A model generated the notes under the pieces. That model was not told where the DNA came from, did no database searches, and worked only from the letters and a program-made list of their open reading frames with translations. Position numbers and translations under genes: made by a program. A stretch of DNA of 49,141 nt from an uncultured bacterium (GTDB taxonomy: Bacteria > CAYUVA01): NCBI GenBank assembly GCA_964448115.1, contig CAYUVA010000029.1, forward strand, positions 7,125 to 56,265, in the 5' to 3' direction. Each line of letters begins with the position of its first letter. Position 1 is the first letter of the stretch. Below are positions 25,164 through 46,661 of this stretch, piece after piece.

Positions 25164-25166
25164 ATT

Positions 25167-26195: not shown

Positions 26196-26246
26196 CAATA
26201 CACGCGATAGTTCTTATCTAGGGAAAGTATCCCTGTAATTGTAATT

Positions 26247-27608
26247 GTGTCAAAAAATACAAATAATTCGGCAAAGCAGACTGAACATAAGGCTAGCCAG
26301 AACCATCTGCTAAACCTATGCTTTGAGAGCCTCTCCAACGGAAAGGATATCCTGCTTAGCTCTAGCCCCGGCTGCGGGAAGACTTATCTACTCAAGCGGT
26401 TAGGTGAGATGTTCTCCAAGGATAGAAAAAGGAGATACATCTACTTTGATTGCCGCTGGATATGCACCACTCCACAGAGGTTCATAAAAGAGCTTTTATC
26501 CAGGATAATCAACGAATTATACTCGAAATCCAATCATCGCCGCCGACTTATTACCAAACTCAGGGATTCTTTATTGAACGAGGCAGGGATCAGACTCATC
26601 GATCCCAGGCAAACAAGACTACAGATAGATATTTACTCACCGGATAAGGGTTTTTACTTGCAGCTCGAAGAAGGGTTGCGACTAATTAAGTCCTTATTAA
26701 ATGATCTTGCTTTGCAGCTTATATTTGCCTGGGATAACTTCGAGGAAACTCAGACTCTGCGTAATTATCCAGATATGCATGATTTTATGGAGAAGTTTTG
26801 CGAGCTTATTATCTGCGATGATGTGATCAAAAATATTATTACACTTGGATGCGAGATTCAGCTTCGGAGTTGTAATCATAAGCTAGTAAGATATCGAATG
26901 ATTCCATTCAACCTGGATGATATCAAGGCTCTTAAAAGGTTTTCTGCACCTGTCGCTCAGGAGTTCGCATATTTCACTGGGGGAAAACCGTTATACCTTG
27001 ACATCTTCAGCACTTATTATCAGGACTTGAGCGAGGAAGAGCGGCTATCCGATAAGAAGGCTATTATGACAGTGCTTAGATATGTACTGTGGGATCTTTT
27101 ATCAGACAATGGCATGTTGAATAGCTATGTGGAGAGGATGCTTATCGATAGACTATCCAGGGCAAGGGGCTATGGTGTGCTCAAGGAGATATTAAGTGTC
27201 CTTAGCCAGCAACCAGGCGCCAAGCTCAAGGATATCTCGGACCAAATAGGCAGGATCCGCTCCAGTACACTTAACTATCTTAAGGAGTTACAAGCTGTTT
27301 ATCTAATCGAACGGCGGGGTTATCATTACTTCATCGCTGACCCGATCCTCTCAATGTACCTTAGGTTCAACAGCCAGTATCCACTTTCCAGGTTGAGTTG
27401 GAGGGATATAGATGACAAACTTATTGATAGTATTTATCCAAGCGAGTTTAAGTTTGCCGAGCTGGTTTACAGCCTGAACCTGATGGAGGAGGATAGCATA
27501 AAGCCGACCAAACGAAGGGAAAAAAGACCGCCCGCCAAGGATAAAAAAACGAAGGCTAAACCCACTGAAAACACTATAACTAGGGCATTCAAGCCAGAGA
27601 TAGACTGA
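26247..27608 (+). CDS. AAA-type ATPase (archaeal-ATPase/ORC-like fold) with a C-terminal winged-helix-like region and a Lys-rich tail.
   Basis: Walker A SSSPGCGKTYLLKRL, Walker B-like IFAWDNFEE, and a basic C-terminal tail KRREKRPPAKDKKTKAKP. Confidence 0.65.
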   Translation: MSKNTNNSAKQTEHKASQNHLLNLCFESLSNGKDILLSSSPGCGKTYLLKRLGEMFSKDRKRRYIYFDCRWICTTPQRFIKELLSRIINELYSKSNHRRRLITKLRDSLLNEAGIRLIDPRQTRLQIDIYSPDKGFYLQLEEGLRLIKSLLNDLALQLIFAWDNFEETQTLRNYPDMHDFMEKFCELIICDDVIKNIITLGCEIQLRSCNHKLVRYRMIPFNLDDIKALKRFSAPVAQEFAYFTGGKPLYLDIFSTYYQDLSEEERLSDKKAIMTVLRYVLWDLLSDNGMLNSYVERMLIDRLSRARGYGVLKEILSVLSQQPGAKLKDISDQIGRIRSSTLNYLKELQAVYLIERRGYHYFIADPILSMYLRFNSQYPLSRLSWRDIDDKLIDSIYPSEFKFAELVYSLNLMEEDSIKPTKRREKRPPAKDKKTKAKPTENTITRAFKPEID

Positions 27609-27647
27609 TCTGATATTCCCAAGATGGAGGGCTGGGAATGGAAAGCT

Positions 27648-29477
27648 TCACGGTTTATCCAAGATGATCGGCTTTAGGCGCACAGAATGCTTTTTACCAT
27701 CAAAGTCTATATCTGCCAGCAGTGCGACCTTGCCGGGAAACAGCCCCATCGGCGCAGCCCTTCCTTTCTCGATCCGTGCATAGATGACACTGCTATCATA
27801 AAACGGGCTGTTGGCTGCAAGGGCGCCGTTTAGTATCACTTGGCGTGCTGATACATTAACTCCTGCCTGCGTATCTATATGAACCACGGCATTTTCGATA
27901 CCCTGGCGTTTAACATGAGTTGGAACCAGGCGCAAAAGCTCGGTCTCCTGCATCCATGCCGAGGCTACTCTGGGCACATAAGCCACCATGCTCTCCACTA
28001 TTAAAAAAGTTACCAGCAACGATGAGAAGTTGAAGCGGCGATCGGGAGTTTGTTTATCATCGGAAACTGATCCTGACAGATAGATCAAACCCCTCGCTGC
28101 CAATATTATCATAAATGGTATGGTTGGATAATAGTATCTCGCTCCCACCAGCATAAGCGCGCTATGCGCCCAGTACAGCATGTAAAAGATAGCAAAGCTC
28201 ACATTAAACGAAAACAGAAATATCTCCTTTCTGCCCCGATATGGGGAAAGTAGAGTTAATATCGGCAAAAGCAGGCTAACAAAAGGAAAACCAAGCAGAT
28301 TAACTGACATGACATAAAGATTTAGCCAGAGATTATATAATCCATCAAGGGGAGTATGCCCCTTATGGATTCCCTCCTTGATATCCATGACTCCATAAGA
28401 TCGTGGTTGATCGGTAAAGCCGATATTGTCAAGCCCCTGCTCGACGGTGTATGGGTGGCGGTGCATGTCGCCGGTAACCTGGTAATTATAGAAATAACCG
28501 AGCGCCAGCAGGATTATGTATCCGGCGATCATGAAAGGCATAATGGGCGCAACCTGGCTGAATGCCCGAAAGAGCTTGTAAATAAGGAGAAATAATATCG
28601 GAACGAGGATGAGCACCGCATCGAACGGCCTGGTCAGGGCTGCAAAGCCGAAGCTAAAGCCGGCGATCACCCCCCATAGGTACCGATGCCTGCCGTAAAA
28701 AGCTCGCAATATGCTGTAAACGAAAAGCACACCCCAAAAAGCAGTCGCAGTGTGCGCCAGGTAAGTCCCGTTCATAAACAGCGCAAACGGTGAGACCATA
28801 TAGAGAAACTGGGCAATAACTGCGGTTGTATGATCGAAAAGAAGCCTTGCCAGCAGGTAGATTACAAATCCTAGCAATGCGCCAAGAAGAGGATTGATCA
28901 ACCAAGGTGCACCGACAAGTATCCCTGGAACAAGCAAAAGCGGGTATCCAGGAAAGAACCTGGAAAACAGGCGTCCATTATAATAGACCGTATGTAACAC
29001 CTTGACATGAGGGATCAACTGCGCTGGAACCGATGAATAAAATTTACCATTAGCCAAAATCTTCGCCTGGTAAAGATTGCAGATTCCATCATCGAAGTGC
29101 GGAATTCCACCTATTATGATAATGGAAACGATGAGATAGAGCAAAAAACTGACTCCGAGCAATACATAAGGTGTACCTTTGTAAGCGAGTAATGACCTTG
29201 CAAAACTGCCGATTGCCAGTGCTATCTTAGGGGATTTTCGTGTTATCAACCAAATCACGGCTATTAGAAGGGGGTAAATGACTAGAAGCCTCAACAGTTC
29301 TCTTGATGCAGAGGCGGTAACCACATCAGGAAACAGCGGATCGAACCTGCTAGGGAGGATCTTGTTTACATGTAGCAGACTAAAGGACTGATCGAGTTGT
29401 GGTTTACATTGTGCCCCAGTTACAAATAGACTAAGAGCTAACAGTATGGCAAAGTGCATCGACAATCCCTTAATCAC
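27648..29477 (-). CDS. Polytopic membrane protein, GT39/ArnT-like glycosyltransferase candidate.
   Basis: About 12 predicted TM helices throughout, an N-terminal signal-like MHFAILLALSLFVTGAQC, and a large C-terminal soluble domain. The family assignment is tentative. Confidence 0.45.
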   Translation of the reverse strand: MIKGLSMHFAILLALSLFVTGAQCKPQLDQSFSLLHVNKILPSRFDPLFPDVVTASASRELLRLLVIYPLLIAVIWLITRKSPKIALAIGSFARSLLAYKGTPYVLLGVSFLLYLIVSIIIIGGIPHFDDGICNLYQAKILANGKFYSSVPAQLIPHVKVLHTVYYNGRLFSRFFPGYPLLLVPGILVGAPWLINPLLGALLGFVIYLLARLLFDHTTAVIAQFLYMVSPFALFMNGTYLAHTATAFWGVLFVYSILRAFYGRHRYLWGVIAGFSFGFAALTRPFDAVLILVPILFLLIYKLFRAFSQVAPIMPFMIAGYIILLALGYFYNYQVTGDMHRHPYTVEQGLDNIGFTDQPRSYGVMDIKEGIHKGHTPLDGLYNLWLNLYVMSVNLLGFPFVSLLLPILTLLSPYRGRKEIFLFSFNVSFAIFYMLYWAHSALMLVGARYYYPTIPFMIILAARGLIYLSGSVSDDKQTPDRRFNFSSLLVTFLIVESMVAYVPRVASAWMQETELLRLVPTHVKRQGIENAVVHIDTQAGVNVSARQVILNGALAANSPFYDSSVIYARIEKGRAAPMGLFPGKVALLADIDFDGKKHSVRLKPIILDKP

Positions 29478-29536
29478 TTATTGCCTTTATGCCTAGTTGG
29501 TTTTGTTCTGGATATGCTAAGAAACTTACAACAATA

Positions 29537-31594
29537 CTAGTTAGGGTTCACATCGGTCGCACCGTCGGCAGGGATTGGATTGCTCGGCTTATGGGGCGGA
29601 TTATTGCCATACTGGGCTGACTGTACATCTATTGGTGTATAGATCATGCCAATATGCTCAGCAAGCGAATAGCTCGGTTCCCCAAAGGTTATGATATTAG
29701 TAGGCTCAACATCTCGTAGTCGAACAGCCCCTCGGTTATTTTTAGTTAACTTCGGCAGGGACAACGCAACCATTTTTTGATAGAAGAATGATTTAATATC
29801 TGCGATCAGACGGCTGATTCTGCTTGGTTTGTGTATGATCTGTATGTTCTGTTGCTCATCATCAGTGGCTGAATTTGCATAGAATGGGACCACGAGATAT
29901 GGCCAGGGAGAGCTGACCGCGCCCTCTATATCCTTAGCCAACAACTCCAGGTTGTATTTTCCTACGGGTGCACCGGGGGAAATCGGCGCCTGGAATTGCC
30001 AAATAGAGTTAGCTGGGTCCACTAATGTCAACTTAACGCCAGTGGGAACACCCTGGTAAAGTATCTCAACCTCGCTGACCACGCCCATGCCCATGCCGGG
30101 GTGATCGGTAGCATAGGCGAGCAAGGTCATGATTCCTCCATCGGCATTAGTGAGACGGGTGTTCATATACCCGGCGATATTCACTATCGGCGGTAGATTG
30201 CCCATCGGTGGCGTTGAGGTCGGCGTCATAGTAGGGGTGGGGGTCGCAGGCGGTGGCGCGCCCCAGGTAGTGAAACGCCAGACATCGCCGCTGGTGCAAT
30301 CGCCGTGGTTATCGCAGGCGAGCACCTGCCAGTAATAGGTTGTGTTAGAGTTCATCTTGCCCGGATACCAGTAACGATTGGTCGTGTCATTAACGACCCG
30401 GCTTGTGGGCGGATTAACATTAGCCTCGAAGTAAACATCGTAATAGACTATATCCCCTGCGTCAGGATCCCCCCCATCCCAGCGCAGGTAGGTTTTGTTG
30501 GGGTCGAAAGTGGGGGTCGGAGTCGGTGTTTTTGTCGGAGTCCTGCCTCCTGGAGTGGGGGTATAGGTCGGGTTGTTCCTGTCCAGTGCATCGATTGCGC
30601 TCAGCACATCATCTCTTAGCCTGGTTCCGCTTGGACCAGAGTAAGCATGATCACCCAGGATATAGTACTGTCCCCCATCGAGGTAGAATATAGGTCCACC
30701 GCTCATCCCTCCATAGCTAGTGCCGCGATAATAGAGCTTGTAGTTGTCCGCGTACCATATATTATCCTGGTTCTCGTACATCTCGTTGCCGCTGAAGCCG
30801 GTCTCTGCTGGGTAGCCGGTAACCCGAACCGTCTTGCCGAAGTACCAGGTTACATTGTTTACAGCGTGCCCCATGTTTCCGACGCCACTTGAGCTGCCCA
30901 AGGCTACCGCTCCCCAGTCGTAGCGCCAGTCGTGGCTAGTTCTCCATCCATTAGGGACGGTTAGTGCAACGCTGGCAAATTGACCGAATGGTTGCTGATT
31001 GCCGTTCAAGCCAGGAATTACGATGACTTGATCCGCCCAGCGCCAGTTGCCGGAGCCTTGCGGAACCTCGGAGTATATGCAATGCCCGGCGGTGAGAAGC
31101 AGCCTGTCCTTCATAATAAACGAGCCGGAGCAGACATACCAGGTGCTGCCGTAGCGCATCAGCAGCTTGCAGATAGTCTTGTATGGATAAACCGTTGTGT
31201 TGTTGATCTTGTAGAAGCCCTTGGCATCCTCGTTCATGCCATCATAGATCAATTCTGATCGCTGGATAGGCGGGCAATCCATCGGCTCCAGGGTGTGATA
31301 GACCGGCTGCTCGAATGACTCATCAGCCCAGGGAACCTCGGTTACCGAGACCATTGGCATCGGCTTGGCTGACAGGATGATCTCCTCATCGATGCACTCG
31401 CAAGGCTCAAGTACCCATTGATCACCTGGGTCATAGCCCGGATAAACGATCTCGACATCCATGCCGAAAACTCGGATTGTCATCGCGAAAATCACAAACA
31501 TCGACAAGGAGATCATTTGTGCTACTTTCGTGAAAGGCAAGCCTCTTTGTAAACATCTAAAAGCGAGGAAAGCTATCGATTTCATGTAAGACAC
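29537..31594 (-). CDS. Secreted trypsin-like (S1) serine protease. It has Pro/Thr linkers, an Ig/FN3-like region and the same C-terminal domain as the 806-aa propeller protein.
   Basis: His active-site motif LLTAGHC and Ser active-site motif GMSGGP. Linkers TPTPGGRTPTKTPTPTPTF and PPPATPTPTMTPTSTPP. Domain ...AGYMNTRL...ILYQGVPTGVKL...SPWPYLVV. Confidence 0.8.
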   Translation of the reverse strand: MSYMKSIAFLAFRCLQRGLPFTKVAQMISLSMFVIFAMTIRVFGMDVEIVYPGYDPGDQWVLEPCECIDEEIILSAKPMPMVSVTEVPWADESFEQPVYHTLEPMDCPPIQRSELIYDGMNEDAKGFYKINNTTVYPYKTICKLLMRYGSTWYVCSGSFIMKDRLLLTAGHCIYSEVPQGSGNWRWADQVIVIPGLNGNQQPFGQFASVALTVPNGWRTSHDWRYDWGAVALGSSSGVGNMGHAVNNVTWYFGKTVRVTGYPAETGFSGNEMYENQDNIWYADNYKLYYRGTSYGGMSGGPIFYLDGGQYYILGDHAYSGPSGTRLRDDVLSAIDALDRNNPTYTPTPGGRTPTKTPTPTPTFDPNKTYLRWDGGDPDAGDIVYYDVYFEANVNPPTSRVVNDTTNRYWYPGKMNSNTTYYWQVLACDNHGDCTSGDVWRFTTWGAPPPATPTPTMTPTSTPPMGNLPPIVNIAGYMNTRLTNADGGIMTLLAYATDHPGMGMGVVSEVEILYQGVPTGVKLTLVDPANSIWQFQAPISPGAPVGKYNLELLAKDIEGAVSSPWPYLVVPFYANSATDDEQQNIQIIHKPSRISRLIADIKSFFYQKMVALSLPKLTKNNRGAVRLRDVEPTNIITFGEPSYSLAEHIGMIYTPIDVQSAQYGNNPPHKPSNPIPADGATDVNPN

Positions 31595-31828
31595 CTTTGA
31601 CTCAAAGATTGATTTTGTTTGATATTGTACATAGTTATATATACTTCCAAATTATTAAGATTTCAAGCAAAAGCGAACTTTTATTGACATTTAGATCAAA
31701 AGGTTATGAAATTGTGATCGAAAATACTGACAGGTGCTTCCTGAACTTAACACTAAAGACAAAAGTCTAGGGCTTTTCACTTAAGGGTCTAAAATTGGTC
31801 TTTTAGGGAAAATACGCGCTCACCCCAG

Positions 31829-31906
31829 CCCTCTCCCAGAGAGAGGGCGTAGGAACTGGAAAGGGTGATCCCATCCCTTCTCTCTGGGAGAGGGTTAGGG
31901 AGAGGG
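31829..31906. repeat. GC-rich twin palindromic repeat element (REP/MITE-like) upstream of the pduS-like gene.
   Basis: CCCTCTC-CCAGA-GAGAGGG at 31829-31847 and CCCTTCTCTCTGGGAGAGGG(TTAGGGAGAGGG) at 31875-31906. Both sit in an otherwise AT-rich 367-bp intergenic region. Confidence 0.5.
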
Positions 31907-31961
31907 TCTTTCACCTGTAAGTAGAACAGTATAAAACTATAGTATAAAGACTCCTTCCATT

Positions 31962-33275
31962 ATGGTTGATGATCTTGTCGAAAAAGTGATAGGAGCGGGC
32001 GTAATCGGAGCGGGCGGAGCCGGCTTTCCCGCGCATATCAAGCTCGATTGCAAGGTCGATACTGTAATCGCCAACGGCGCCGAGTGCGAACCGCTGCTCT
32101 ACAGCGACCAGCAGATCATGCACAAAAATGCCGATGAAGTGGTGGCTGGACTGCACCTGGTGATGAAGCAGGTAAAAGCGAAAAAGGGATTTATCGCCCT
32201 CAAAGCCAAATACAAGGCATCTCTTCAAGCCATAAAAAAGGTGGCAGCTAAATACGATGATATCGAGATCGCCCTCCTAGAGGACTACTATCCAGTCGGC
32301 GATGAGCAGATACTTGCTTATGAGGTTACCAGCAGGCTCACTCCCCAGGGCGGAATCCCTATCGATATCGGAGTGCTGGTCTGCAATGTCCAATCTCTTG
32401 TGCAGATACATAGCGCAGCCAATGGAACTCATGTTACCAGCCGTATGGTTACTATAATCGGCGATATTCCTAGACCGGCGGTCATCGAGGTTGCAATTGG
32501 TACCACCTTCGAGGAACTTCTGGCAGGAACTGGCAACCAGCTTGACGATGATGGCAAAGTCATACTTGAGGGTGGCATTATGATGGGCACGGTGCGAGAG
32601 AACCTCGATGAGCCGGTGAAACGAACCACCACCGGCATCATCGTGCTTCCCAAGGCTCACCCTGTGGTCATGGAGAAACTCCGCCACTGGCAGCGTGATA
32701 TAAACATCATGCGCAGCGCCTGCGCTCAATGCTATTATTGCAGCGAGGTTTGCTCAAGGCGCCTGCTGGGGCTTGAACTGGAGCCGCACAAGATAATGCA
32801 TTACATAGCCCTTGGCGATGAAAGGCACATCCCAGAGGGGATCTACAACTGCTCCGGCTGCGGATTATGCGGAATCTGGGCTTGCTATATGGGGCTTTCG
32901 CCATGGAAGGTGATCCAATACCTTAAACAAAAGATACCCTATGATGGGCACAAGATCCCCATCGATGCAGCTCATCCCAGCCGAAACCTGCGCAAGGTGC
33001 CTAGCTCGCGATTGAAGATTAGGCTGGGGATTGATAAATTCGACATCAAGCCGACTGTCCTGGAACCATTGCTGGAGCCTAAGCGAGTGCGTTTGAGCCT
33101 CGAGGAGCATATCGGGGCTGCCGCAGTACCCCTAGTTTCAATTGGAGATATGGTGCGAAAAGGTGATATAATCGCCGAACCACCCGCAGGTGAGATGGGA
33201 GCGGTGGTGATCGCCTCCATCACTGGAAAGGTTACAAAGATCAACGATTGCATCGAGATAATCAACCAGGAGTAA
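31962..33275 (+). CDS. PduS-like RnfC/NuoF-family Fe-S flavoprotein (BMC-associated cobalamin reductase-like oxidoreductase).
   Basis: GAGVIGAGGAGFPAHIKL...DTVIANGAECEPLL matches the PduS/RnfC N-terminus. Two 4Fe-4S motifs: CAQCYYCSEVCS and CSGCGLCGIWAC. A BMC shell gene follows directly. Confidence 0.8.
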   Translation: MVDDLVEKVIGAGVIGAGGAGFPAHIKLDCKVDTVIANGAECEPLLYSDQQIMHKNADEVVAGLHLVMKQVKAKKGFIALKAKYKASLQAIKKVAAKYDDIEIALLEDYYPVGDEQILAYEVTSRLTPQGGIPIDIGVLVCNVQSLVQIHSAANGTHVTSRMVTIIGDIPRPAVIEVAIGTTFEELLAGTGNQLDDDGKVILEGGIMMGTVRENLDEPVKRTTTGIIVLPKAHPVVMEKLRHWQRDINIMRSACAQCYYCSEVCSRRLLGLELEPHKIMHYIALGDERHIPEGIYNCSGCGLCGIWACYMGLSPWKVIQYLKQKIPYDGHKIPIDAAHPSRNLRKVPSSRLKIRLGIDKFDIKPTVLEPLLEPKRVRLSLEEHIGAAAVPLVSIGDMVRKGDIIAEPPAGEMGAVVIASITGKVTKINDCIEIINQE

Positions 33276-33279
33276 TAAA

Positions 33280-33828
33280 TTGGTACATGCCATCGGAATG
33301 CTGGAGTTGAGGAGCATCGCCAGGGGGATCGAGGCAACCGATGCTATGGTCAAGGCTGCACAGGTCTCCTTGCTGCGAAGTGCTCCCATCTGTTCCGGTA
33401 AGTACCTCATCCTGGTCGGAGGACTGGTCGCTGATGTGAAAAGCGCTATGGCTGATGGCGAGGAAGTAGCTGAATATAGCGTGGTCGATAAGCTGATCAT
33501 CCCCAATATCCACCAGGACATCTTCCCTGCCCTGACTTTCACCACCCAGATTGGAGAGATCGATGCTTTAGGGATCATCGAGGCATTCTCGGCATCATCG
33601 ACCATCATCGGCGCTGACCTGTCGGCAAAGGCAGCCAAGGTGCAACTGATACAGATAAGGCTAGCCAACGGCATCGGCGGCAAGGGATACTTCACTCTGA
33701 CCGGCGATGTTGGCGCAGTGCGGGCAGCGGTCTCGGCTGCATCGGAAGCGCTGTCAGCGCAAGGGATGCTGGTCGAGGCGGTGGTCATACCCCAGCCACA
33801 CCATGATATATCGCCTTTTTTAATATGA
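33280..33828 (+). CDS. BMC-T tandem-domain microcompartment shell protein, PduT-like.
   Basis: Two BMC (PF00936-type) domains: AIGMLELRSIARGIEATDAMVKAA...VVIPNIHQD and ALGIIEAFSASSTIIGADLSAKAA...GDVGAVRAAVSAASEA...VVIPQPHHD. Cys in APICSG is at the position of the PduT Fe-S ligand. Confidence 0.85.
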   Translation: MVHAIGMLELRSIARGIEATDAMVKAAQVSLLRSAPICSGKYLILVGGLVADVKSAMADGEEVAEYSVVDKLIIPNIHQDIFPALTFTTQIGEIDALGIIEAFSASSTIIGADLSAKAAKVQLIQIRLANGIGGKGYFTLTGDVGAVRAAVSAASEALSAQGMLVEAVVIPQPHHDISPFLI

Positions 33829-33854
33829 GGCATGGGGATTGATAGTCTTTGAAC

Positions 33855-34045
33855 CACAAAGACACAAAGGCACAAAGAAGAGGGTGATACCGTGATACCG
33901 AGCTACCGTGATACCGTGAATGAGGCTCTTTCCTCGCATCTTGCACCTCACCCCACTTTGCGTCTTTGCCTTTTTCCGTCTGTTTCCTTCCTTAATATTC
34001 TTTGCGTCTTTGCGTCTTTGCGTGATCCTCTTTCATCTCCCTTCA
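33855..34045. promoter_or_regulatory. Structured repeat-rich intergenic region between BMC-T and the vertex genes: an imperfect 23-bp inverted repeat, a GTGATACC triplet and CTTTGCGT direct repeats.
   Basis: CACAAAGACACAAAGGCACAAAG at 33855-33877 against the reverse complement of CTTTGCGTCTTTGCGTCTTTGCGTG at 33999-34023. GTGATACC occurs three times at 33884-33917. CTTTGCGTCTTTGCC at 33955-33969. Confidence 0.4.
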
Positions 34046-34057
34046 AACTAAAAAACT

Positions 34058-34363
34058 ATGCCGTTTTATCTAGCTAGAATCATTGGATGCCTGGTAGCGA
34101 CCCGAAAGGAGCCGGGCTTGGAGGGCAAGAAGCTGCTCCTCGTGCAGCCGATAGATGCCTCTGGCAAGGACAAAGGCACACCGATAGTCGCCACCGATGC
34201 AGTCGGCGCCGGCGTCGATGAGATCGTGATCATAGTCGATGGGGGCAAGGAGGCGGGTTTCGCCTTTTACCCGCAGCATGTCCCCTCAGATGCGAGCGTG
34301 GTCGGCATAGTTGATGATGTCTTCACCTTCAAACAGAATAATAAGCAGACAAAGGAGCCTTGA
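34058..34363 (+). CDS. BMC vertex pentamer protein (EutN/PduN/CcmL family, BMV).
   Basis: MPFYLARIIGCLVATRKEPGLEGKKLLLVQP...GAGVDEIVII matches the EutN consensus (.VIGTVVSTQK.P.L.G.KLLLVQ). Confidence 0.85.
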   Translation: MPFYLARIIGCLVATRKEPGLEGKKLLLVQPIDASGKDKGTPIVATDAVGAGVDEIVIIVDGGKEAGFAFYPQHVPSDASVVGIVDDVFTFKQNNKQTKEP

Positions 34364-34367
34364 TGTT

Positions 34368-34649
34368 ATGTTCATAGCCAAGGTCATCGGCAATGTAACC
34401 GCCACCCAGAAGCACTCTGCTTACAAGGGCAGAAAGCTGCTCCAGGTACAGCCGGTGGATCTATCAGGCGAGCCGATGGGGAGGGATTACCTGGCGATCG
34501 ACCTTGTGGATGCAGGGATCGGGGATACGGTTATTCTGACCATTGAAGGCTCATCGGCTATGTCAGCGTTGGGTGATCCTCATGCTCCAGCCAATGCCAT
34601 TATCATCGCGGTCGTGGATGAGATTGACATTTATGGTAATAATGAATAA
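34368..34649 (+). CDS. Second BMC vertex pentamer protein (EutN/PduN family). The start is trimmed to the internal Met preceded by an AAGGAG RBS.
   Basis: MFIAKVIGNVTATQKHSAYKGRKLLQVQPVD...DAGIGDTVIL. The track ORF starts at 34311, but that would overlap the upstream gene. AAGGAG lies at about 34354. Confidence 0.8.
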   Translation: MFIAKVIGNVTATQKHSAYKGRKLLQVQPVDLSGEPMGRDYLAIDLVDAGIGDTVILTIEGSSAMSALGDPHAPANAIIIAVVDEIDIYGNNE

Positions 34650-34664
34650 TATTATAATAATTAT

Positions 34665-36929
34665 TTAATAATTATTGCCAAATAATTTTTTAATTTCTTG
34701 TTCCATTTCATTAAATTCTTTCTCCGTTTCAACTTTCATTTCTTCTCTAGCTTCAATGAAAATTTTTATTAATTCTTTCTTAAAATCTTCTCTATTAAAT
34801 GCTTCTTCTAATTCTAAAATCATTTTATCAATTGTAAAGCCTAATACTATAGAACTTAAAGTGCCACCAACAATGGCGCCTGCTGCTGTCCCAGCTCCTG
34901 GAATAACAGACCCAATCCCACCTCCAATTAATGCAGCTAAACCTTTTCCCATGGCTTTCTTTCCTAAAATTTTTGTAAACGCCTTTGCGGCGGCTTTTAT
35001 TGTGCCTTTTGCTGCAATTTTTGATACTATTTTCTTTGTAATAATTGCCGTGAATATTCCGCCGGTTGCAGCACCACCTACACTAGCACCTATATTATAT
35101 TTCGTCATATTAAAATTTTCTAATGTAATTATTATATTTTCCATACTACGATCTACAATAATATCACGATTTGGATAGGAAATATCTATTTTATATTTTT
35201 TAACAATTTTCATTATATCTTTCTCATATTTGTTAATTAACTTATTTATTTTATTACAATATTCTATATATTTTTCATTATTTATTGCATCGATATTATG
35301 CTCTTTTAATTTTTCCTTAATAATATCTTTTAGTTTAGCTTCAATATATTCATTTAATTTACCTTGGAACATATTTATTATGCGCATATATTCTGCTGGC
35401 AAAGAGTAATACCAGTTTAAAAAAGGATCTATACCTTCTATCGCAATATCAAAAGTTTTATCTATAAATATATTTTTATGCTCTTGATATTTAAAATTAA
35501 TACGCTCAATTTCTTTTTCATAAAATTTATTTATCTTATTTATTTTATTAATACCATCTTGGTTAATATATATATCATTTCCATTTATAATAATTCTAAA
35601 AGCATGTTTTATTCCTTTTTCAATGTACTCTCTTTTTTCTTTAGAACTTTCGAAATATTTCCTGGTTTCCAACAGAAAATTTAATCCTCCCAACAAAGGA
35701 ATATAAATAAATATTACACTAAAAACTAAAAATAGCGTGCAGATAAAAATTTTATTTTTAGAAATAGGAGGTGGAATATCCTCGCGACCACGAGAAAATT
35801 CAAAGATTCTTCCATACTCATTCCAGGGTATAAGCAAAAATAAATATAAAAAACATGCAATACTAAAAAGCGGTAAATTAAATAAAAATATTATACCTAA
35901 TTTTAATAATATCCTCAATTTCTTTGTATCATTTTTATTCATGGATTGATACTTTATATGATTTTTAATAAAATTAATAGAATAATCTTCAATTGCAACC
36001 TTATAAGAATAAATGTATGAAATTTCTTTTATTAATTTCATAGAATGCATATTATCTACTAATTCTTTCTTTTTACTAATTACTTCTTCTAACGAATTAT
36101 ATGATGGAACTGGTTTTAGTATAGGGATAAAAATTACACATAATAAAGAAGCAATTATTGGAGTAAATCCCAGCGCCAAGGATATTGGATAATAATAAGA
36201 AAGATATTGCTGAGTTTCTTTTTTAACAAGCTTTCTAAAAATTGAAAAAACAAGGTAAAATATCGGTGCAACTGAAAAAATAATCAACCATTCATATATA
36301 TTATAAAATTGAAATTGTATTACTAATAGCCATGACATTGCATGTGCTATAATAATCCAAATAAATATTCTAAGAATGGTTCCAGAAAATAATCGATTTA
36401 TAATGCCTTCGGAATTAAAAGATTGTAGAAATTTCAACCGTCTAATTGTTGATCTATATAGCAAAGATAAAAATATTGATAAAGTTAGTAGGATAAGCAA
36501 TAAAATTTGAGAAATAATTGCAAATTCAGAATAAGTTAAATAAACTAAAATAATTATTAATAAGGTAAAAATAATTATCTTTACCATATATCTCCAAAAC
36601 AAATTACTTGTCTTAAATTCATTTACCATGGACTGTTTAGACTTCAAACTATCATTTGGTGCTAGTTTATCTTCATGCAAAATATTCCCTGTTTCATTGA
36701 TAGTTTGTTTTACTTGCTTTGTGGCTTTTTTTCTGAAAAATAGTATATATAAAATAATAAAAATAAATATCCATAATATAAATACCACATAAGGGGAAAA
36801 ATCAGAATTGTATAAAATAGCAAATGAAATGAATAATATAAAAGTAGAAACCAAACTTATGATTAATGCAATTATCGATAATAACAAAATCAATAAAAAA
36901 CTCTTAATCCATTTAAATAATTTTTTCAT
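34665..36929 (-). CDS. Large polytopic membrane protein encoded in an AT-rich (~25% GC) island. Its C-terminus is a Gly/Ala/Lys-rich glycine-zipper region.
   Basis: The ORF is 754 aa (2265 bp), rich in K/I/N/F/Y, with more than 10 hydrophobic segments. C-terminus GASVGGAATGGIFTAIITKK...GGGIGSVIPGAGTAAGAIVGGTLSSIVLG. The composition contrasts sharply with flanking DNA. Confidence 0.55.
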   Translation of the reverse strand: MKKLFKWIKSFLLILLLSIIALIISLVSTFILFISFAILYNSDFSPYVVFILWIFIFIILYILFFRKKATKQVKQTINETGNILHEDKLAPNDSLKSKQSMVNEFKTSNLFWRYMVKIIIFTLLIIILVYLTYSEFAIISQILLLILLTLSIFLSLLYRSTIRRLKFLQSFNSEGIINRLFSGTILRIFIWIIIAHAMSWLLVIQFQFYNIYEWLIIFSVAPIFYLVFSIFRKLVKKETQQYLSYYYPISLALGFTPIIASLLCVIFIPILKPVPSYNSLEEVISKKKELVDNMHSMKLIKEISYIYSYKVAIEDYSINFIKNHIKYQSMNKNDTKKLRILLKLGIIFLFNLPLFSIACFLYLFLLIPWNEYGRIFEFSRGREDIPPPISKNKIFICTLFLVFSVIFIYIPLLGGLNFLLETRKYFESSKEKREYIEKGIKHAFRIIINGNDIYINQDGINKINKINKFYEKEIERINFKYQEHKNIFIDKTFDIAIEGIDPFLNWYYSLPAEYMRIINMFQGKLNEYIEAKLKDIIKEKLKEHNIDAINNEKYIEYCNKINKLINKYEKDIMKIVKKYKIDISYPNRDIIVDRSMENIIITLENFNMTKYNIGASVGGAATGGIFTAIITKKIVSKIAAKGTIKAAAKAFTKILGKKAMGKGLAALIGGGIGSVIPGAGTAAGAIVGGTLSSIVLGFTIDKMILELEEAFNREDFKKELIKIFIEAREEMKVETEKEFNEMEQEIKKLFGNNY

Positions 36930-37818: not shown

Positions 37819-38571
37819 TCAACCCAGGTCGCCGAAGCGATTCTGTAGAATTGCGGTCAAGGTTATTGCCGCGGTCTCTGCCCGTAATATCCTCGATCCC
37901 AGGTTTACCGCCTCGAATCCATTTTTGAAAGCAGCCGCTATCTCACTGGCAGAAAAATCCCCCTCGGGACCGATTGCTACTAGGCATGAATTGGGAGCTT
38001 GCATCCTGGTTAGAGCTTCATTCAAAGATTGACCGGCAGTAGCTGTTGCAATCAGTTTCAGCTCGATCGACTGGGATTCCTCCAGGAAGTGCTCCCAGCT
38101 TATCGCCTTACGCAATCTCGGAATTGTCGCCCTGCCGCACTGCCTGGTAGCCTCGATGATGATCCGCTCCCAGCGCCTACCCTTAGCCTCCTTAAATCCT
38201 CGCCCGGAAGGTACCTGCGAGTTATCCGTGATTACTGGGATCAGCTCGCTTATTCCCAGTTCGACACACCTTTGGATGATCATCTCCATTTTAGTAGCCT
38301 TTAGCACTGCTTGTGCCAGAATCAGCCTTAGCGGCGATTCGGGGATCGGCTCCAGGTTATCAATAATCCTTCCATAGGCGGTGTGTTTGCCGGTTTTAGT
38401 GAGCCTGACAAGATACTCCTTGCCTTTGCCATCGAATACGCAGACCATATCCCCAGCCTTCAAGTGGAGCACCTTGCTCAGATGCCAGACTGCTGGAGGG
38501 GTGAACTCGATGATTCCCTTCTCGATGCGATGTCCGGGAGTATAGAATCTATATTTGGGTCTTCTATCCAT
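37819..38571 (-). CDS. rsmE: 16S rRNA (uracil1498-N3)-methyltransferase.
   Basis: N-terminus RFYTPGH...I.L....WHL.KVLHLKAGD is typical of RsmE. C-terminal SPOUT motif LVAIGPEGDFSASE. Confidence 0.8.
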   Translation of the reverse strand: MDRRPKYRFYTPGHRIEKGIIEFTPPAVWHLSKVLHLKAGDMVCVFDGKGKEYLVRLTKTGKHTAYGRIIDNLEPIPESPLRLILAQAVLKATKMEMIIQRCVELGISELIPVITDNSQVPSGRGFKEAKGRRWERIIIEATRQCGRATIPRLRKAISWEHFLEESQSIELKLIATATAGQSLNEALTRMQAPNSCLVAIGPEGDFSASEIAAAFKNGFEAVNLGSRILRAETAAITLTAILQNRFGDLG

Positions 38572-39896
38572 CCTCTTTTGGCTAGCTCAATAATCACCTC
38601 CCCGGCAAAGTAAAGAGACCCGGCAAAGATATGCAAGCCAGGCTCTTTATTTTGCTTTATCCTTTCGAGGATCTGGGACAACTGCTCAAAGCGAGCGTTA
38701 CTGCCAAGCTCTGAGATATAAGCCTCCCTTGGCTTAGCACGGGGATTTTTCATCACGATAAATGCGCTATCATCCATGTTGGCTGCAAGTGCCTCCATGA
38801 AGGGGAGTATCTTTTTCTCCCTGGAGAATGCCAGGTAATACCGAACATTCTTATCATCCTTGAATGCCTCGATATGCTCCCTAAGAGCGGCGGCTGCGGA
38901 TCGATTATGCGCTCCATCTATGATCAAGATGTTGTTTGCGTTGCCATCGTTGAGTTTAGTACATTGCAGCCTCCCCAACCAGTGGACATGTTCCATTCCA
39001 TTTATTACTGAATCTTCGGTTATGCTCCAGCCTTTATCCTGCAAATACAGGCAAGCTCGAATAGCTAAAAGTGCATTGCCGAGTTGTCGATTACCAGCCA
39101 GGGATAGCCTAAAGGCAAAGGTCTGTCCGCTTTGGCGATCCGAGATGCTGATCAACTGGGAATCCAATAGTTGTCTGTGTTCATTGATTTTTAATCTTTC
39201 ATCCGGGAAAAGGATGGGAGAATTGGTCTCTTGACACCTTGAATATACCTGGTCGAGCACGGTCTTGGGCTGTCTATTGATGATCACGGGAGCATTCGGC
39301 TTGATTATACCTGCCTTCTCACCGGCGATCTCTTCTATCCTGTCGCCTAGGATCTCTGTATGATCCAAGCCTATCTCGGTGATGATGCTCAATATGGGTT
39401 GTATCACATTGGTCGAATCTAGCCTTCCGCCTAATCCGACCTCGATAATGGCTATGTCAACCTCGCTGCGCCTGAAATGCTCGAATGCCAGCGCGGTCAT
39501 CAAGGTAAAGACGGTTCTATAATCGGTCAATTGACCTACCTGTTCGCTCCCTGCCATGAGCATCTCGGTGATGGAGCAAAACTGGTCTATCGATATCGGG
39601 ATGCCGTCTATGGTAAATCTCTCCCTGACATCGAACAGGTGAGGAGATGTGAATGCACCTGTTTTGTAACCTGCCTGGGAGAGGATGCTTTGCAACATGG
39701 CGACCACCGAGCCTTTACCATTGGTGCCGGCTACATGGATTTTGGGGTAGTTGTTCTGTGGATCTCGCAATCGCTTAAGGTATGTGGAAAATTCTCTTAG
39801 GCTTCGGTCAGTAACCTCGACCTTGAAGCGAAAGCGATCGATCTCCAGGTTGGTATGGCGGTACAGGTAATCAAGCGCGCTTTGGTAGCTGATCAT
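38478..39896 (-). CDS. folC: Bifunctional folylpolyglutamate synthase / dihydrofolate synthase.
   Basis: Mur-ligase P-loop HVAGTNGKGSV, IIEVGLGGRLDSTNV and DGAHN motifs. Its 3' end overlaps the rsmE start by about 90 bp. Confidence 0.85.
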   Translation of the reverse strand: MISYQSALDYLYRHTNLEIDRFRFKVEVTDRSLREFSTYLKRLRDPQNNYPKIHVAGTNGKGSVVAMLQSILSQAGYKTGAFTSPHLFDVRERFTIDGIPISIDQFCSITEMLMAGSEQVGQLTDYRTVFTLMTALAFEHFRRSEVDIAIIEVGLGGRLDSTNVIQPILSIITEIGLDHTEILGDRIEEIAGEKAGIIKPNAPVIINRQPKTVLDQVYSRCQETNSPILFPDERLKINEHRQLLDSQLISISDRQSGQTFAFRLSLAGNRQLGNALLAIRACLYLQDKGWSITEDSVINGMEHVHWLGRLQCTKLNDGNANNILIIDGAHNRSAAAALREHIEAFKDDKNVRYYLAFSREKKILPFMEALAANMDDSAFIVMKNPRAKPREAYISELGSNARFEQLSQILERIKQNKEPGLHIFAGSLYFAGEVIIELAKRGWIEDPNIDSILPDIASRRESSSSPLQQSGI

Positions 39897-40291
39897 CGCC
39901 CATCTTCGTTATTTTCAAATCCTAGCTCCTTCAACTCCACCATCCTGCCAGAAGCCCAAAGATCCTCCAAAGCATAGTATTCCCTCGCTTCCTCCAGGAA
40001 TATGTGGATGACCATATCTCCATAATCGATCAGGATCCAGTAGCCATGTTCGTATCCCTCTACATGGTACGGTCTAGTTTCTCGATTCTCTTTAAGGGTT
40101 TCTACGATATGGTCTGCAATCGCCTGCGTCTGCCTGGTGGATAAGCCGCTGGTTATAATAAAGTAGTCTGTGAAATCGACCAGGTCTGATATATCAATGA
40201 CTAAGGGATTCTGCGCTTTTTTAGCCATCATGGCGCTGAGGGTTTGCCTGACCAGCTCTTGTGTCTCGACATCGTGCCTTGCTATGTTCAT
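39893..40291 (-). CDS. rsfS: Ribosome silencing factor (Iojap family).
   Basis: KKAQNPLVIDISDLVDFTDYFIITSGLSTRQTQAIADHI is the conserved RsfS core. It sits downstream of nadD as in most bacteria. Confidence 0.85.
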   Translation of the reverse strand: MNIARHDVETQELVRQTLSAMMAKKAQNPLVIDISDLVDFTDYFIITSGLSTRQTQAIADHIVETLKENRETRPYHVEGYEHGYWILIDYGDMVIHIFLEEAREYYALEDLWASGRMVELKELGFENNEDGR

Positions 40292-40986
40292 TTGCCTCCC
40301 TTAATGTAAAGTTCGTTATCTAGCAGGTACTTCTCAACCAGTGTGGGGGTGAGATACCTTATGGAGACTGCTGAGCGCAGCCGTTTTCTTATCTCCGTGG
40401 AGCTTATCTCTATACCGATTATCGGTAAAAAGTGGATGCTATGATCGTTTTTACCACTGATACTTAGATATCTGCCTGTATCCTTAGCTTCATTAGGGTT
40501 GAATAAAGGCTTCAAATCTCTGTCTATAACCGATAAAAATCGGTCCGGGGAGCTATTTATGCCTCGGCTAGTAATTATAAAATCGCAGTGATCGAAAAGC
40601 TCTTCATACTTGTACCATGTCCTTATCTCCTCGAAGGCATCCAATCCCATGATAAAATATTGGCAATAAGAGTTATGCTTCCCCTCGAAGTATTTAATGG
40701 TATCAATCGAGTAGGATATGTATCCTTTTTTTATCTCGTAATCGGAGACCTGGAAATACGGATTATCAGCCACTGCGATCTCAGTCATCCGCAGCCTATG
40801 CGTGGCATCGAGCAACCTGGCGGCATTTTTGTGTGGCGGATTAGCACAGGGAATGAATATGACCTTTTGCAGCTCAAACGCGTTCCTAGTTTCTTCGGCT
40901 TGGACGAGGTGTCCATAGTGTATCGGGTTGAATGAACCTCCCAGAAGTCCGATACGCCCTTCTTTTGCAGAATTACCCGAAAACAA
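40288..40986 (-). CDS. nadD: Nicotinate-nucleotide adenylyltransferase.
   Basis: IGLLGGSFNPIHYGHL (HxGH nucleotidyltransferase motif) and SSTEIRKRL (ISSTxIR) motif. Confidence 0.85.
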   Translation of the reverse strand: MFSGNSAKEGRIGLLGGSFNPIHYGHLVQAEETRNAFELQKVIFIPCANPPHKNAARLLDATHRLRMTEIAVADNPYFQVSDYEIKKGYISYSIDTIKYFEGKHNSYCQYFIMGLDAFEEIRTWYKYEELFDHCDFIITSRGINSSPDRFLSVIDRDLKPLFNPNEAKDTGRYLSISGKNDHSIHFLPIIGIEISSTEIRKRLRSAVSIRYLTPTLVEKYLLDNELYIKGGK

Positions 40987-41106
40987 GTTATTTAATAGTC
41001 GCTCCTTTGGATGGAAAGAGAAATTGGCGCGAATACACAGATATTGACCTATGCCGATTCTGATCGACTGAGCTAAGCCGGTTTATATACTGTTTAGATA
41101 TCCAGG

Positions 41107-41373
41107 TCACCCCGCAGTTATCTCGGTAACCAATCTTAGCGTATCACCGCTGTTAACCCCGGCTGAGGAGAGGGTCTCGTTTCCAAGTAGCTGTCGCCCG
41201 CTCTCCTTGTGGATCAGCTTATAGTTCAGCCTCCCCCCGGCATCGCTCAAGGGTAGCTCGAGCTGCTCGATGAGCAATGGAATGATACTTTTTATCTCCA
41301 CATCGTCGGAGATCTCGACTAGTTCCCTTTTGCTCTCGTATTGGTCGGTCAAAACAACCTGTATATCAGCCAT
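41107..41373 (-). CDS. Small ubiquitin-like (beta-grasp) protein.
   Basis: 88 aa. The C-terminal half GRQLLGNETLSSAGVNSGDTLRLVTEITAG parallels ubiquitin [30 protein letters not shown] but ends in AG. It lies directly downstream of a Zn-ribbon protein. Confidence 0.45.
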   Translation of the reverse strand: MADIQVVLTDQYESKRELVEISDDVEIKSIIPLLIEQLELPLSDAGGRLNYKLIHKESGRQLLGNETLSSAGVNSGDTLRLVTEITAG

Positions 41374-41410
41374 ATCTATGCTTCCTTTTTATTTAGGTTT
41401 TTTTTATATA

Positions 41411-41896
41411 TCATCCTGTGCTGAGCTTGTCTCGGAGATAAATCTTAACCTTATTCTCCACCGCCGGAGATAGCGAAAGGCTGCTATTATCCCGTAAAAG
41501 ATCCCTAAGTTCCTTGGCTTGTTCCAAGGTAAGATCCTGGTCGGTGATGATAAGATGCACATATTTCTTGATGATTTGATTGGTCTGTAGTCGTTTGATG
41601 AGAGCTTTTTCCTTCTGTTTGCCATTGCATCCAGGTCTAGCGCAGCGATCTATAGCTAGCCAGCAATTATCATCTCCCCCACGGTCATGATAATAAAGGG
41701 TGCATCCATCGCCGGGGCACTTCACCGCCATCCGATTCTCCGGGGCGGTAAAGTCCTCTCGGCACACCGGGCAGATCATGTGCCTATGCTCCTTGGGAAC
41801 CCTGGTTGTAAGAGCATAGTAATCCTTCTTGCTGCTTTTACTTTTGTTTATGAGCTGGTTGAAAATCTCGTTCAGCTTGTCCTTTTCTTTAGCCAT
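41411..41896 (-). CDS. Hypothetical zinc-ribbon protein.
   Basis: CPVCREDF...(17 aa)...CPGDGC plus C..C.RPGC. Basic N-terminus. No recognisable enzymatic motifs. Confidence 0.45.
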   Translation of the reverse strand: MAKEKDKLNEIFNQLINKSKSSKKDYYALTTRVPKEHRHMICPVCREDFTAPENRMAVKCPGDGCTLYYHDRGGDDNCWLAIDRCARPGCNGKQKEKALIKRLQTNQIIKKYVHLIITDQDLTLEQAKELRDLLRDNSSLSLSPAVENKVKIYLRDKLSTG

Positions 41897-42079
41897 TTTC
41901 GTGAAAAAAGATTCAACACCTCATCAGTTCCTCATATCACAATTTACTCTTACATGATAATAATTCCAGTGAAAAAGTCAAAATATTTCTCTGTCTTAAT
42001 ATGTGAGCTAGCAAATCGTATTTTAAGCAATTGCTAAGCCAATCATAGTTTCTAGCATAAATCATTCAATTTTGCTATC

Positions 42080-44509: not shown

Positions 44510-44536
44510 TCTTTTATAATTTATAGGGATTTAGCA

Positions 44537-45496: not shown

Positions 45497-45501
45497 ATTG
45501 A

Positions 45502-46245: not shown

Positions 46246-46255
46246 TGCTATAACT

Positions 46256-46624: not shown

Positions 46625-46661
46625 TTAAGCTAGCCTCCTTGATTCAATTCGAGATTCCCAT

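Follow-up and report, generated by a model that had tools for sequence, protein, structure and literature searches.

Paired arrays of short tandem repeats have been described in the genome of Geobacter metallireducens as 'global regulator binding sites', with 24, 21 and 8 pairs in classes 1-3, respectively (PMC2700814). Each of these sites consists of 3-5 tandem octa- or heptanucleotide repeats, and the sites are multicopy and paired, with the two partners on opposite strands and separated by distances that vary. One such pair is located between two genes of one operon, proB and proA, and the reading of the sites as targets of an IHF/HU-type protein was a guess made without experiments (PMC2700814). 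This paper is the only earlier description of such an architecture that was found in the literature. The arm sequences described below gave no match there, and in searches on octamer repeats and on short tandemly repeated repetitive (STRR) sequences the Geobacter paper alone was relevant. Here we analyse an element with paired octamer arrays in a 49,141-nt stretch of DNA from an uncultured bacterium (contig CAYUVA010000029.1, positions 7,125 to 56,265), which is referred to as the window. The element lies within a bacterial microcompartment (BMC) locus, between the genes encoding the shell protein BMC-T and the first of two EutN/CcmL vertex proteins. It is probably a decayed, gene-less relic of a widespread family of palindromic cassettes with octamer arms, inserted between these two genes. 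Its features are as follows.

33847..33854, no strand assigned: left outer flank CTTTGAAC, part of the element, matched in the viral contig L148
33855..33877, no strand assigned: left arm (CACAAAGN)x3, from the sequence read, Tandem Repeats Finder and inverted-repeat pairing
33878..33883, plus strand: purine-rich linker AAGAGG after the left arm, named for its likeness to the Shine-Dalgarno-like leader in gene-carrying cassettes
33884..33919, plus strand: GTGATACC array of 4.5 units (85%), with three exact copies, one GAGCTACC and one partial unit
33956..33981, no strand assigned: degenerate CTTTGCGT array of about 3 units with 72% matches, from Tandem Repeats Finder
34000..34022, no strand assigned: right arm (CTTTGCGN)x3, perfect repeats, from the sequence read and Tandem Repeats Finder
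34023..34028, no strand assigned: right outer flank TGATCC, subtype 'CTTTGCG|TGAT', without complementarity to the left flank
33892..34077, plus strand: 61-aa open reading frame (ORF) with a GTG start, judged non-coding

A sequence-only reading of the window had claimed an element bounded by imperfect inverted repeats. The left repeat, CACAAAGACACAAAGGCACAAAG, is located at 33855-33877 as claimed. The right repeat, CTTTGCGTCTTTGCGTCTTTGCGTG, has the claimed sequence, but lies at 34000-34024 instead of 33999-34023, one base off. The outer arrays are inverted to each other: the arms 33855-77 and 34000-22 are 122 nt apart and complementary at 20 of 23 positions, and the inverted-repeat pair 33857-79 / 33998-34020 (23 nt, 118 nt apart) is 87% complementary. 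The direct repeats reported between the arms were also recovered, as the three exact GTGATACC copies within the 4.5-unit array. Tandem Repeats Finder places the left array at 33855-78 (3 units, 87%) and the right array, in the CTTTGCGT phase, at 33999-34023 (3.1 units, 100%). The spacer thus holds four period-8 arrays, and the program found no others of such kind within 49 kb. The array at 33956-81 is 92% complementary to the left arm over 13 nt and represents a right arm that is either older or duplicated; a duplication of the right arm is seen in L079, too. At all three positions where the arms mismatch, the plus strand has A.C and hence the minus strand G.U.

The repeat feature exceeds chance by far. 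For each array pattern, none of 100 shuffles reached the observed count. Only two sites of the window, the element and 31819-31904, have inverted repeats with at least 20 of 23 complementary positions within 300 nt, and none of 30 Markov simulations produced such a repeat. The pattern (CRCNNRGN)x3 matches only the two arms in the window, with 0.07 matches expected. No inverted partner of the GTGATACC array was found in the window. This unit was rejected as a second arm type, as it gave one chance-like 2-unit match in the viral contigs, and the array is read as the product of local expansion by slippage.

The arms belong to a family that is found across phyla. A pattern scan with CTTTGYGNCTTTGYGNCTTTG was performed on one genome per species and separately on IMG/VR viral contigs. 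It gave at least 120 matches in genome contigs, for which our own calculation predicts about 17 (596 Gb, taken as uniform sequence), and at least 120 in viral contigs. The lineages matched in the genome contigs are Pyrinomonadaceae and other Acidobacteriota, Chloroflexota, Nostocales and other cyanobacteria, Sphingomonadales (Alphaproteobacteria), Verrucomicrobiota, Chlamydiota, Bacteroidota, Planctomycetota, myxobacteria and others. Among the 240 loci listed (120 genome, 120 viral), the arrays most often have 3 units. They form 59 pairs in the (-,+) orientation of the window, 15 in the (+,-) and 20 in the same orientation; the 59 pairs and the window element make up the 60 pairs of the pair analysis. 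The distance between the arms of (-,+) pairs is 11-424 nt. Typical members read TCA-(CGCAAAGN)3 ... (CTTTGCGN)3-TGA or GAAC-(CACAAAGN)3 ... (CTTTGTGN)3-GTTC. Canonical copies form perfect or near-perfect stems of 27-33 bp with fold z values of -8 to -12, and their stems continue into complementary outer flanks for 3-9 bp (median about 3-5).

The window copy shares the arm unit, the unit number, the (-,+) orientation and the spacing of the family. Its left flank CTTTGAAC together with the arm, 31 nt in total, is identical at 30 of 31 positions to a left end in an IMG/VR contig (L148:2196). The segment GAAC + arm (33851-33877) is identical at 27 of 27 positions to the left end in L203. The left-end subtype GAAC+CACAAAG was found in 5 and the right-end subtype CTTTGCG|TGAT in 4 of the 60 pairs, and the right flank TGATC occurs likewise in L133 and L168.

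The arms of the family covary, which shows that their complementarity is maintained; the data are silent on whether this happens at the DNA or the RNA level. Complementarity is seen at the purine/pyrimidine (R/Y) position in 138 of 145 unit pairs, and at the spacer base N in 55 of 85. For the three bases that directly adjoin the arrays on the outside, it has frequencies of 0.78, 0.87 and 0.72, compared with 0.38-0.46 for shuffled partners. Over the 60 pairs, 83.9% of the cells are paired, against 75.6% after shuffling and at most 55% in slid controls. Changes on both sides number 220 in the 60-row alignment versus 105 in shuffles, none of 500 of which reach the observed value. The R/Y columns contain 40-41 GC, 16-17 AU and 2 other combinations, and the covariation score is 0.267 versus 0.130 for shuffled and at most 0.119 for slid arrangements.

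Period-8 arrays of other units are enriched about 9-fold within 300 nt of the arms, and arrays of periods 6, 7 and 9 are not. This fits the presence of the extra GTGATACC array in the window and of a GGACTAAG array in L113. Copies on the same contig with common interior and flanks were found in L012, L137 and L201; copies that are alike both inside and outside would be expected of dispersed copies of one element. Target-site duplications are not apparent in the family, with 8 two-nucleotide matches versus 4.1 expected and longer ones not above chance. The clustering of neighbouring genes revealed no transposase family at the arms, and no RAYT gene (Y1, IS200/IS605-like) was present among the 852 ORFs within 200 nt of them. 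In the viral contigs, the identical arm type is found between structural genes and sometimes brackets other ORFs of 57-80 aa. Such ORFs, one of them zinc-ribbon-like, were seen in the IMG/VR contigs L159:1466-1715, L212:11388-11687 and L148:511-867, where they lie between genes that resemble those for terminase, portal and capsid proteins, as would morons or cassette boundaries.

Some further arrangements of the arms were observed. In L061:1670-1738, a 69-nt (+,-) arm pair lies inside a long TruB-like ORF (…VTIHSL[CVFASLRETEKDLFAQRRKDAKD]AVDEITLTANVSKGTYIRSL…) and is apparently an in-frame insertion in the housekeeping gene truB, in the manner of Rickettsia palindromic elements. In L236:2194-2269, (CACAGAGN) arms are located outside (CACAAAGN) arms as nested arrays, and at L139:5270 two right ends follow in series with GAGAGATAATCTTTTAAA after each. 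The arrays in L236 and L139 suggest modular units of array plus linker.

Comparison with related loci identifies the spacer as an insertion in the lineage of the window. The relevant features of the locus are the following.

33829..34057, no strand assigned: whole spacer, read as an insertion from ORFs, Pfam and the spacers of relatives
31962..33275, plus strand: PduS/RnfC-like gene directly before BMC-T, from ORFs and Pfam
33280..33828, plus strand: BMC-T, shell protein with tandem BMC domains, upstream neighbour (Pfam PF00936, two stretches, E 5.8e-43)
34058..34363, plus strand: first EutN/CcmL vertex protein, downstream neighbour (Pfam PF03319, E 4.8e-27)
34368..34649, plus strand: second EutN/CcmL gene (Pfam PF03319, E 2.3e-25)

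The spacer comprises the 229 nt from the stop codon of BMC-T to the start codon of the first EutN/CcmL gene, as defined by ORFs and Pfam. In the two relatives with the same gene order, L001 and L266, this spacer has a length of only 9-11 nt. L001, the BMC-T of which is 63% identical to that of the window, has a GTG about 10 nt after the BMC-T stop, and the frame that it opens begins with VRLAKVEGVIVCTRK, the N-terminal pattern of EutN. In L266 (BMC-T 54% identical), 11 nt separate BMC-T and EutN in the gene order PduS-like, BMC-T, EutN, EutN, PduL, aldolase. The short spacers of both relatives imply that the 229-nt spacer of the window contains extra DNA. The protein P0001 is 100% identical to the BMC-T of the window; self matches apart, identity reaches 63% for BMC-T and 64-66% for enolase. 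No match to a 31-mer specific for the window was obtained in a metagenome scan, and look-ups of identical sequences for the EutN protein and P0001 led to no close relative. The source organism, which run SRR15988951 likewise contains, is without a close relative in the searched collections.

The genes in the vicinity of the arms were clustered to find out what the cassettes carry. Among the ORFs within 150-200 nt of the arms, a single family clearly recurs in the genome loci, a protein of about 125 aa, which was found in 9 of the 120 genome loci listed. It is the GxxExxY protein, TIGR04256 (NCBIfam, E 5.7e-37), which corresponds to PF13366 and is nuclease-like, of the PD-(D/E)XK type. GxxExxY corresponds to Pfam PDDEXK_3, a family with a function listed as unknown, for which 'multiple transfers' between divisions have been noted (PMC3424549). 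The GxxExxY family is large: at least 7,999 proteins reach E <= 1e-10. The GxxExxY gene occupies the space between the arms in L014 and L090, with its start codon 0-4 nt past the left array.

GxxExxY loci were also sampled independently of the arms, by tblastn against plasmids and chromids (8 loci) and by a protein profile search (5 distinct loci). Inverted octamer arrays are present at 9 of these 13 loci, which were picked by protein similarity alone. Among the plasmid and chromid loci, 4 of 8 carry inverted octamer arrays with units other than that of the window: CGCGAAG in Sphingomonas, CACAGAGG in Bacteroides, CGCAGAGG in Gemmatirosa and CACAGAGA in Bernardetia. The remaining four have a direct repeat of 21 nt, a simple inverted repeat of 12 nt, ACAAATNG arrays in direct orientation, or none of these. 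All five loci from the profile search carry inverted octamer arrays. They have TCA(CGCAAAGN)3 5-12 nt before the ATG, or a full CGCAAAG-type hairpin there, and CTTTGCG-type arrays of 2-3 units, some of them degenerate, which end in TGAG or TGAC at most about 40 nt from the stop codon. The leaders between left array and gene, such as CGCAAAG-AAGGAAGAGGAG-ATG in L255 and AGAAGAAGAGGGATT in L236, resemble the AAGAGG linker of the window, as judged from the sequence. No GxxExxY gene was seen at arms in the viral contigs, and none was found in the cultured phage collection.

In L242 (Sphingomonas parapaucimobilis), a GxxExxY cassette with CGCGAAG-type arms occupies the fabD-fabG spacer of the fatty-acid synthesis operon, and the annotated GxxExxY coding sequence extends through the right arm. 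In L247 (S. paeninsulae) an empty 33-nt fabD-fabG spacer is found at this site. The cassette has also been inverted. L255 (Nostoc sp. CENA543, CP023278.1) and L256 (a JGI metagenome contig), both cyanobacterial, share the neighbouring FrhB-like and Met-gamma-lyase genes and contain the GxxExxY cassette in opposite orientation. Their alignment switches strand inside the octamer arms, with an identity of 80% in the interior and 82-85% in the flanks. The location of the breakpoints within the arms indicates that the arms take part in recombination, and the pair shows that a cassette can stay at one site for a long time. A further arrangement was observed in the soil metagenome contigs L258-L263, where a GxxExxY gene with two complete small octamer hairpins as its flanks is located between hsdS and hsdR of a type I restriction-modification (R-M) locus.

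From these data we propose the following history. The cassettes of this family are bounded by inverted arrays, typically of three tandem octamers with the consensus CRCnnRGn, here CRCAAAGN. In intact members the arms and 3-9 flanking bases make up a perfect stem of 27-33 bp, enclosing either a short loop ('empty' hairpin) or a small gene, most often GxxExxY, that starts 0-12 nt after the left arm. The family presumably spreads, or once spread, as a mobile or recombining cassette. By analogy to REPIN/RAYT or to homing-endonuclease cassettes, the gene-carrying form is probably the autonomous partner and the gene-less hairpins its non-autonomous form. One copy would have entered the original 9-11-nt BMC-T/EutN spacer, shed its cargo and then drifted. 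Such a loss followed by drift would account for the A.C mismatches, for flanks that are not complementary and for extra arrays made by slippage, such as GTGATACC, and the AAGAGG after the left arm is compatible, in its sequence, with a loss of cargo through internal deletion. The element likely has no dedicated function in the BMC, and any effect on the operon mRNA would be incidental at most. Translation of EutN may have been separated from that of BMC-T with the loss of the tight junction, and a moderately stable long-range stem and a pyrimidine-rich leader may have been placed before the first EutN gene, which lacks a Shine-Dalgarno sequence.

We regard it as possible, though as the less probable outcome, that the arms define an undescribed cross-phylum class of small gene cassettes, found in phage-like contigs as well, in which the GxxExxY protein of the autonomous form recognises (CRCnnRGn)x3 to move, invert or home the cassette. 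Within this tentative scheme the protein would recognise the arms as a DNA hairpin, cruciform or duplex, and the gene-less hairpins would be derivatives or landing sites.

Several observations weigh against the assignment of the window copy to the family as its relic, or against the mobility proposed for the family. All three R/Y pairs of the window are A.C mismatches and account for 3 of the 7 failures among 145 unit pairs; only L168 has a mismatch of this type. The extension of the stem into the outer flanks is 0 in the window, as its flanks are not complementary, and its fold z of about -1.8 lacks the hallmark of canonical copies with their -8 to -12. The left end GAAC|CACAAAG and the right end CTTTGCG|TGAT belong to different subtypes, so that two elements may have been joined here in a chimera; among the other pairs, only L168 combines subtypes in this way. 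A second copy of the arms was not found in the 49 kb, and neither a target-site duplication nor another insertion footprint was found at the element. Searches for a GxxExxY gene or its remnant in the spacer and the 49-kb window by tblastn and hidden Markov models yielded noise only. Linkage is all that points to GxxExxY as the agent that mobilises the arms, and in viral contigs the arms bracket other small ORFs, where GxxExxY was not seen. The long vertical inheritance of the cassette in L255 and L256 argues for low mobility.

The sequence-only reading had offered three explanations of the element: a MITE-like insertion (MITE, miniature inverted-repeat transposable element), a structured RNA leader, or a cluster of operator sites. 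The first has held as far as the insertion itself and the recurrent inverted arms are concerned, but no target-site duplication surrounds the element (GTCTTTGAAC vs TGATCCTCTT), and no DDE transposase partner was found. A structured RNA leader lacks support. The spacer folds barely better than shuffled sequences (z -1.77 on the plus and -1.78 on the minus strand). Rfam covariance models gave 0 matches in the window and, over 19 canonical loci, only unrelated matches to rRNA, tmRNA and a SAM riboswitch. The spacer is moreover absent from the orthologous loci, and the arms occur in unrelated contexts. These contexts, which comprise a fab operon, R-M loci, tRNA-synthetase genes and phage structural modules, likewise speak against operators of the BMC genes. 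Neither an intrinsic terminator nor a sigma-70 promoter (-35/-10) was detected by a scan of 33829-34057. The core of integron attC sites, RYYYAAC...GTTRRRY, is absent, as the element ends in TTTGAAC and TGATCCT, and no integrase was found among the 20 Pfam-scanned ORFs (24000-36929 and 37819-47960). DnaA boxes, IHF sites, a sigma-70 promoter formed by array and flank, anti-Shine-Dalgarno mimicry, a similarity of the GAAC/GTTC flanks to attC, and CRISPR-like arrays were also considered and dropped, because their fit was inconsistent across members.

The inserted DNA could have been exapted as an mRNA element. Its arm duplex and CU-rich leader would then serve as a site of RNase III cleavage or of decay, or would uncouple translation, so that less EutN (pentamer) is made relative to BMC-T and the stoichiometry of the shell is tuned. 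Vertex proteins are required in low amounts in BMC shells, and the substrates of RNase III are duplexes of at least 20 bp. The element starts 26 nt after the BMC-T stop and ends 34 nt before the EutN start, within a co-directional operon. The arm duplex alone has an energy of -28.8 kcal/mol in the sense RNA and -35.8 kcal/mol in the antisense RNA. No Shine-Dalgarno-like motif was read upstream of the first EutN gene (34058), while AAGGAG precedes the second (34368). Many family members also lie between co-directional genes, although the ORF-based classing of the flanking genes was noisy, misclassed the window itself and is of qualitative use only. All this would suit such a role. We nevertheless consider the exaptation unlikely, since the fold z is only -1.8 on either strand, the mismatches are A.C in the sense and G.U only in the antisense RNA, and L001 and L266 have the same gene order without the spacer. 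The spacer also lacks a terminator or promoter consensus. Even less probable is a local origin, in which slippage made the octamer arrays, template switching made the inverted copy, and the likeness to sequences elsewhere is convergent. It would account for the four different period-8 arrays in one spacer, among them the essentially unique GTGATACC array, and for the lack of a target-site duplication and of a second copy in the window. It is difficult to reconcile with the 30/31 identity of left flank and arm to an unrelated viral contig and with the recurrence of the unit, the unit number of 3, the orientation and the flank subtypes across phyla far above chance. Period-8 arrays cluster round the arms in other genomes as well, and local slippage therefore looks secondary to the presence of the element.

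The octamer arrays might alternatively be sites of a DNA-binding protein, a nucleoid-associated 'global regulator' or a regulator of the BMC locus, that controls transcription of the vertex genes. The strict 8-nt periodicity, the three units and the conserved C-R-C..R-G positions do resemble protein recognition, and IHF/HU-type binding has been proposed for analogous paired sites (Aklujkar et al. 2009, PMC2700814), a proposal that had no experimental support. Pfam revealed no regulator gene in the BMC locus, the arms beside fab, R-M, tRNA-synthetase and phage structural genes are not BMC-specific, and the spacer contains no promoter-like site. With a spacing of 8 bp, successive sites would also fall on different faces of B-DNA. 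We consider this explanation very improbable. Hardly any chance is left for a real micro-protein, encoded by the 61-aa ORF (33892-34077) or by a 43-aa ORF (33920-34051). The GTG start of the former is located 8 nt after AGAGGG, placed relative to the left arm as in gene-carrying cassettes. The ORF, however, runs through the repeat arrays and is their translation, with strings of the LCVFASLR type that recur in chance ORFs over arms elsewhere; it shares 20 nt with the beginning of EutN, L001 and L266 lack the whole spacer, and the product has no similarity to GxxExxY. The earlier judgement that this ORF is probably not real is thereby upheld. The decayed cassette remains the reading that we prefer for the spacer.

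For the BMC locus this means that the spacer is best read as a relic insertion instead of a BMC regulator and that neither a gene nor a riboswitch should be annotated there, although the element may still lower or uncouple the expression of the vertex proteins. Its local importance is modest; the family, in turn, ties a defined DNA architecture to a protein family that is very large and the function of which is listed as unknown. Were GxxExxY to recognise the arms as tentatively proposed, this would provide the first functional context for TIGR04256/PF13366 and a REPIN/RAYT-like system that employs another enzyme. Should the linkage be functional, the cassettes would be a new kind of selfish or recombining element, which would also supply long perfect RNA/DNA hairpins in operons and spurious ORF calls.

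The PduS/RnfC-like gene, BMC-T and both EutN/CcmL genes are all encoded on the plus strand. The purine content is 60-80% over 33829-33888, the left third of the spacer, and 10-30% over 33929-34048. A mini-ORF, ATGGGGATTGATAGTCTTTGA (MGIDSL*), at 33831-33851 begins 2 nt past the BMC-T stop and precedes the left arm; it is probably meaningless. Directly after both EutN genes, where L266 has PduL and aldolase, a 754-aa ORF is located at 34665-36929 on the minus strand. It lies in an island of 24% GC, with 45-53% GC on both sides, is rich in lysine and isoleucine, contains many hydrophobic stretches and has no Pfam match. It has the appearance of inserted foreign DNA by which the BMC locus is truncated. 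Divergent from the BMC operon, a 685-aa ORF at 29537-31594 (minus strand) contains PT-rich linkers and is likewise without a Pfam match. A second strong palindrome at 31819-31904, just upstream of the PduS-like gene, has 36-nt arms, CTCACCCCAGCCCTCTCCCAGAGAGAGGGCGTAGGA and TCCCATCCCTTCTCTCTGGGAGAGGGTTAGGGAGAG, that are 81% complementary, and its RNA fold has an energy of -61.6 kcal/mol (z -5.8). Hairpins of the type CCTCTCCC...GGGAGAGG also occur in L012, L087, L099 (two copies), L143, L208 and L238. This palindrome and the octamer element bracket the first two genes of the BMC operon.

Of the described systems, the paired sites of Geobacter are similar in their class 2 unit: TCTCCGTS reads CACGGAGA in reverse complement, and this fits CRCnnRGn (compare CACGGAGG in L243). 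Compared by description, they differ in being known from one genome and in having other units, and no link to GxxExxY, hairpins, phages or other phyla was reported for them. No link between octamer arms and GxxExxY was found in the literature either. In their working, the octamer cassettes are closest to repetitive extragenic palindromic (REP) sequences and the hairpins formed by their doublets (REPINs), with their REP-associated tyrosine transposases (RAYTs). Both kinds of elements are short, mostly intergenic palindromes that form inverted doublets and long hairpins, occur in many copies, lack a target-site duplication and can flank a single protein-coding gene. The cassettes differ in having arms of tandem octamers instead of a REP with a GTAG-type head, and the PD-(D/E)XK protein GxxExxY instead of an IS200/IS605-like Y1 transposase. 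In addition, REPs are species-specific, whereas octamer arms are nearly identical across phyla. REPIN/RAYT is the best analogy to the octamer cassettes, which are not members of that system.

Other elements share only single traits with the octamer cassettes. Bacterial MITEs (Correia/NEMIS, RUP, Nezha) are also small, non-coding and bounded by inverted repeats, and they too lie between co-transcribed genes and form RNA hairpins. The octamer element has neither a target-site duplication nor a DDE insertion sequence, and its termini are internally repetitive. The label of a classical MITE was dropped: the terminal inverted repeats are present, and the target-site duplication and the transposase parent are not. 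The intervening sequences (IVS) of 23S rRNA are found in helices 25 and 45, and their typical ORF encodes a four-helix-bundle protein. They resemble the octamer cassettes as hairpin-bounded insertions in transcribed DNA, which may contain a small ORF and the long stem of which is an expected RNase III substrate, but no member of the octamer family was seen in rRNA. Integron cassettes share promoterless small genes, imperfect hairpin palindromes of variable length and the direction of their neighbours; the octamer cassette has two arms instead of one attC, no RYYYAAC/GTTRRRY core and no nearby integrase. Rickettsia palindromic elements can likewise be inserted in frame within protein genes, as in the truB case of L061, but are restricted to their lineage, unrelated in sequence and without octamer periodicity. 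The cyanobacterial STRRs are short intergenic tandem repeats in Nostocales, which carry many octamer cassettes. They have a period of 7, their definition does not include inverted pairing, and period-7 arrays are not enriched near the octamer arms. The window element is most plausibly the decayed relic of a poorly described cassette family, which belongs among the small palindromic mobile repeats.

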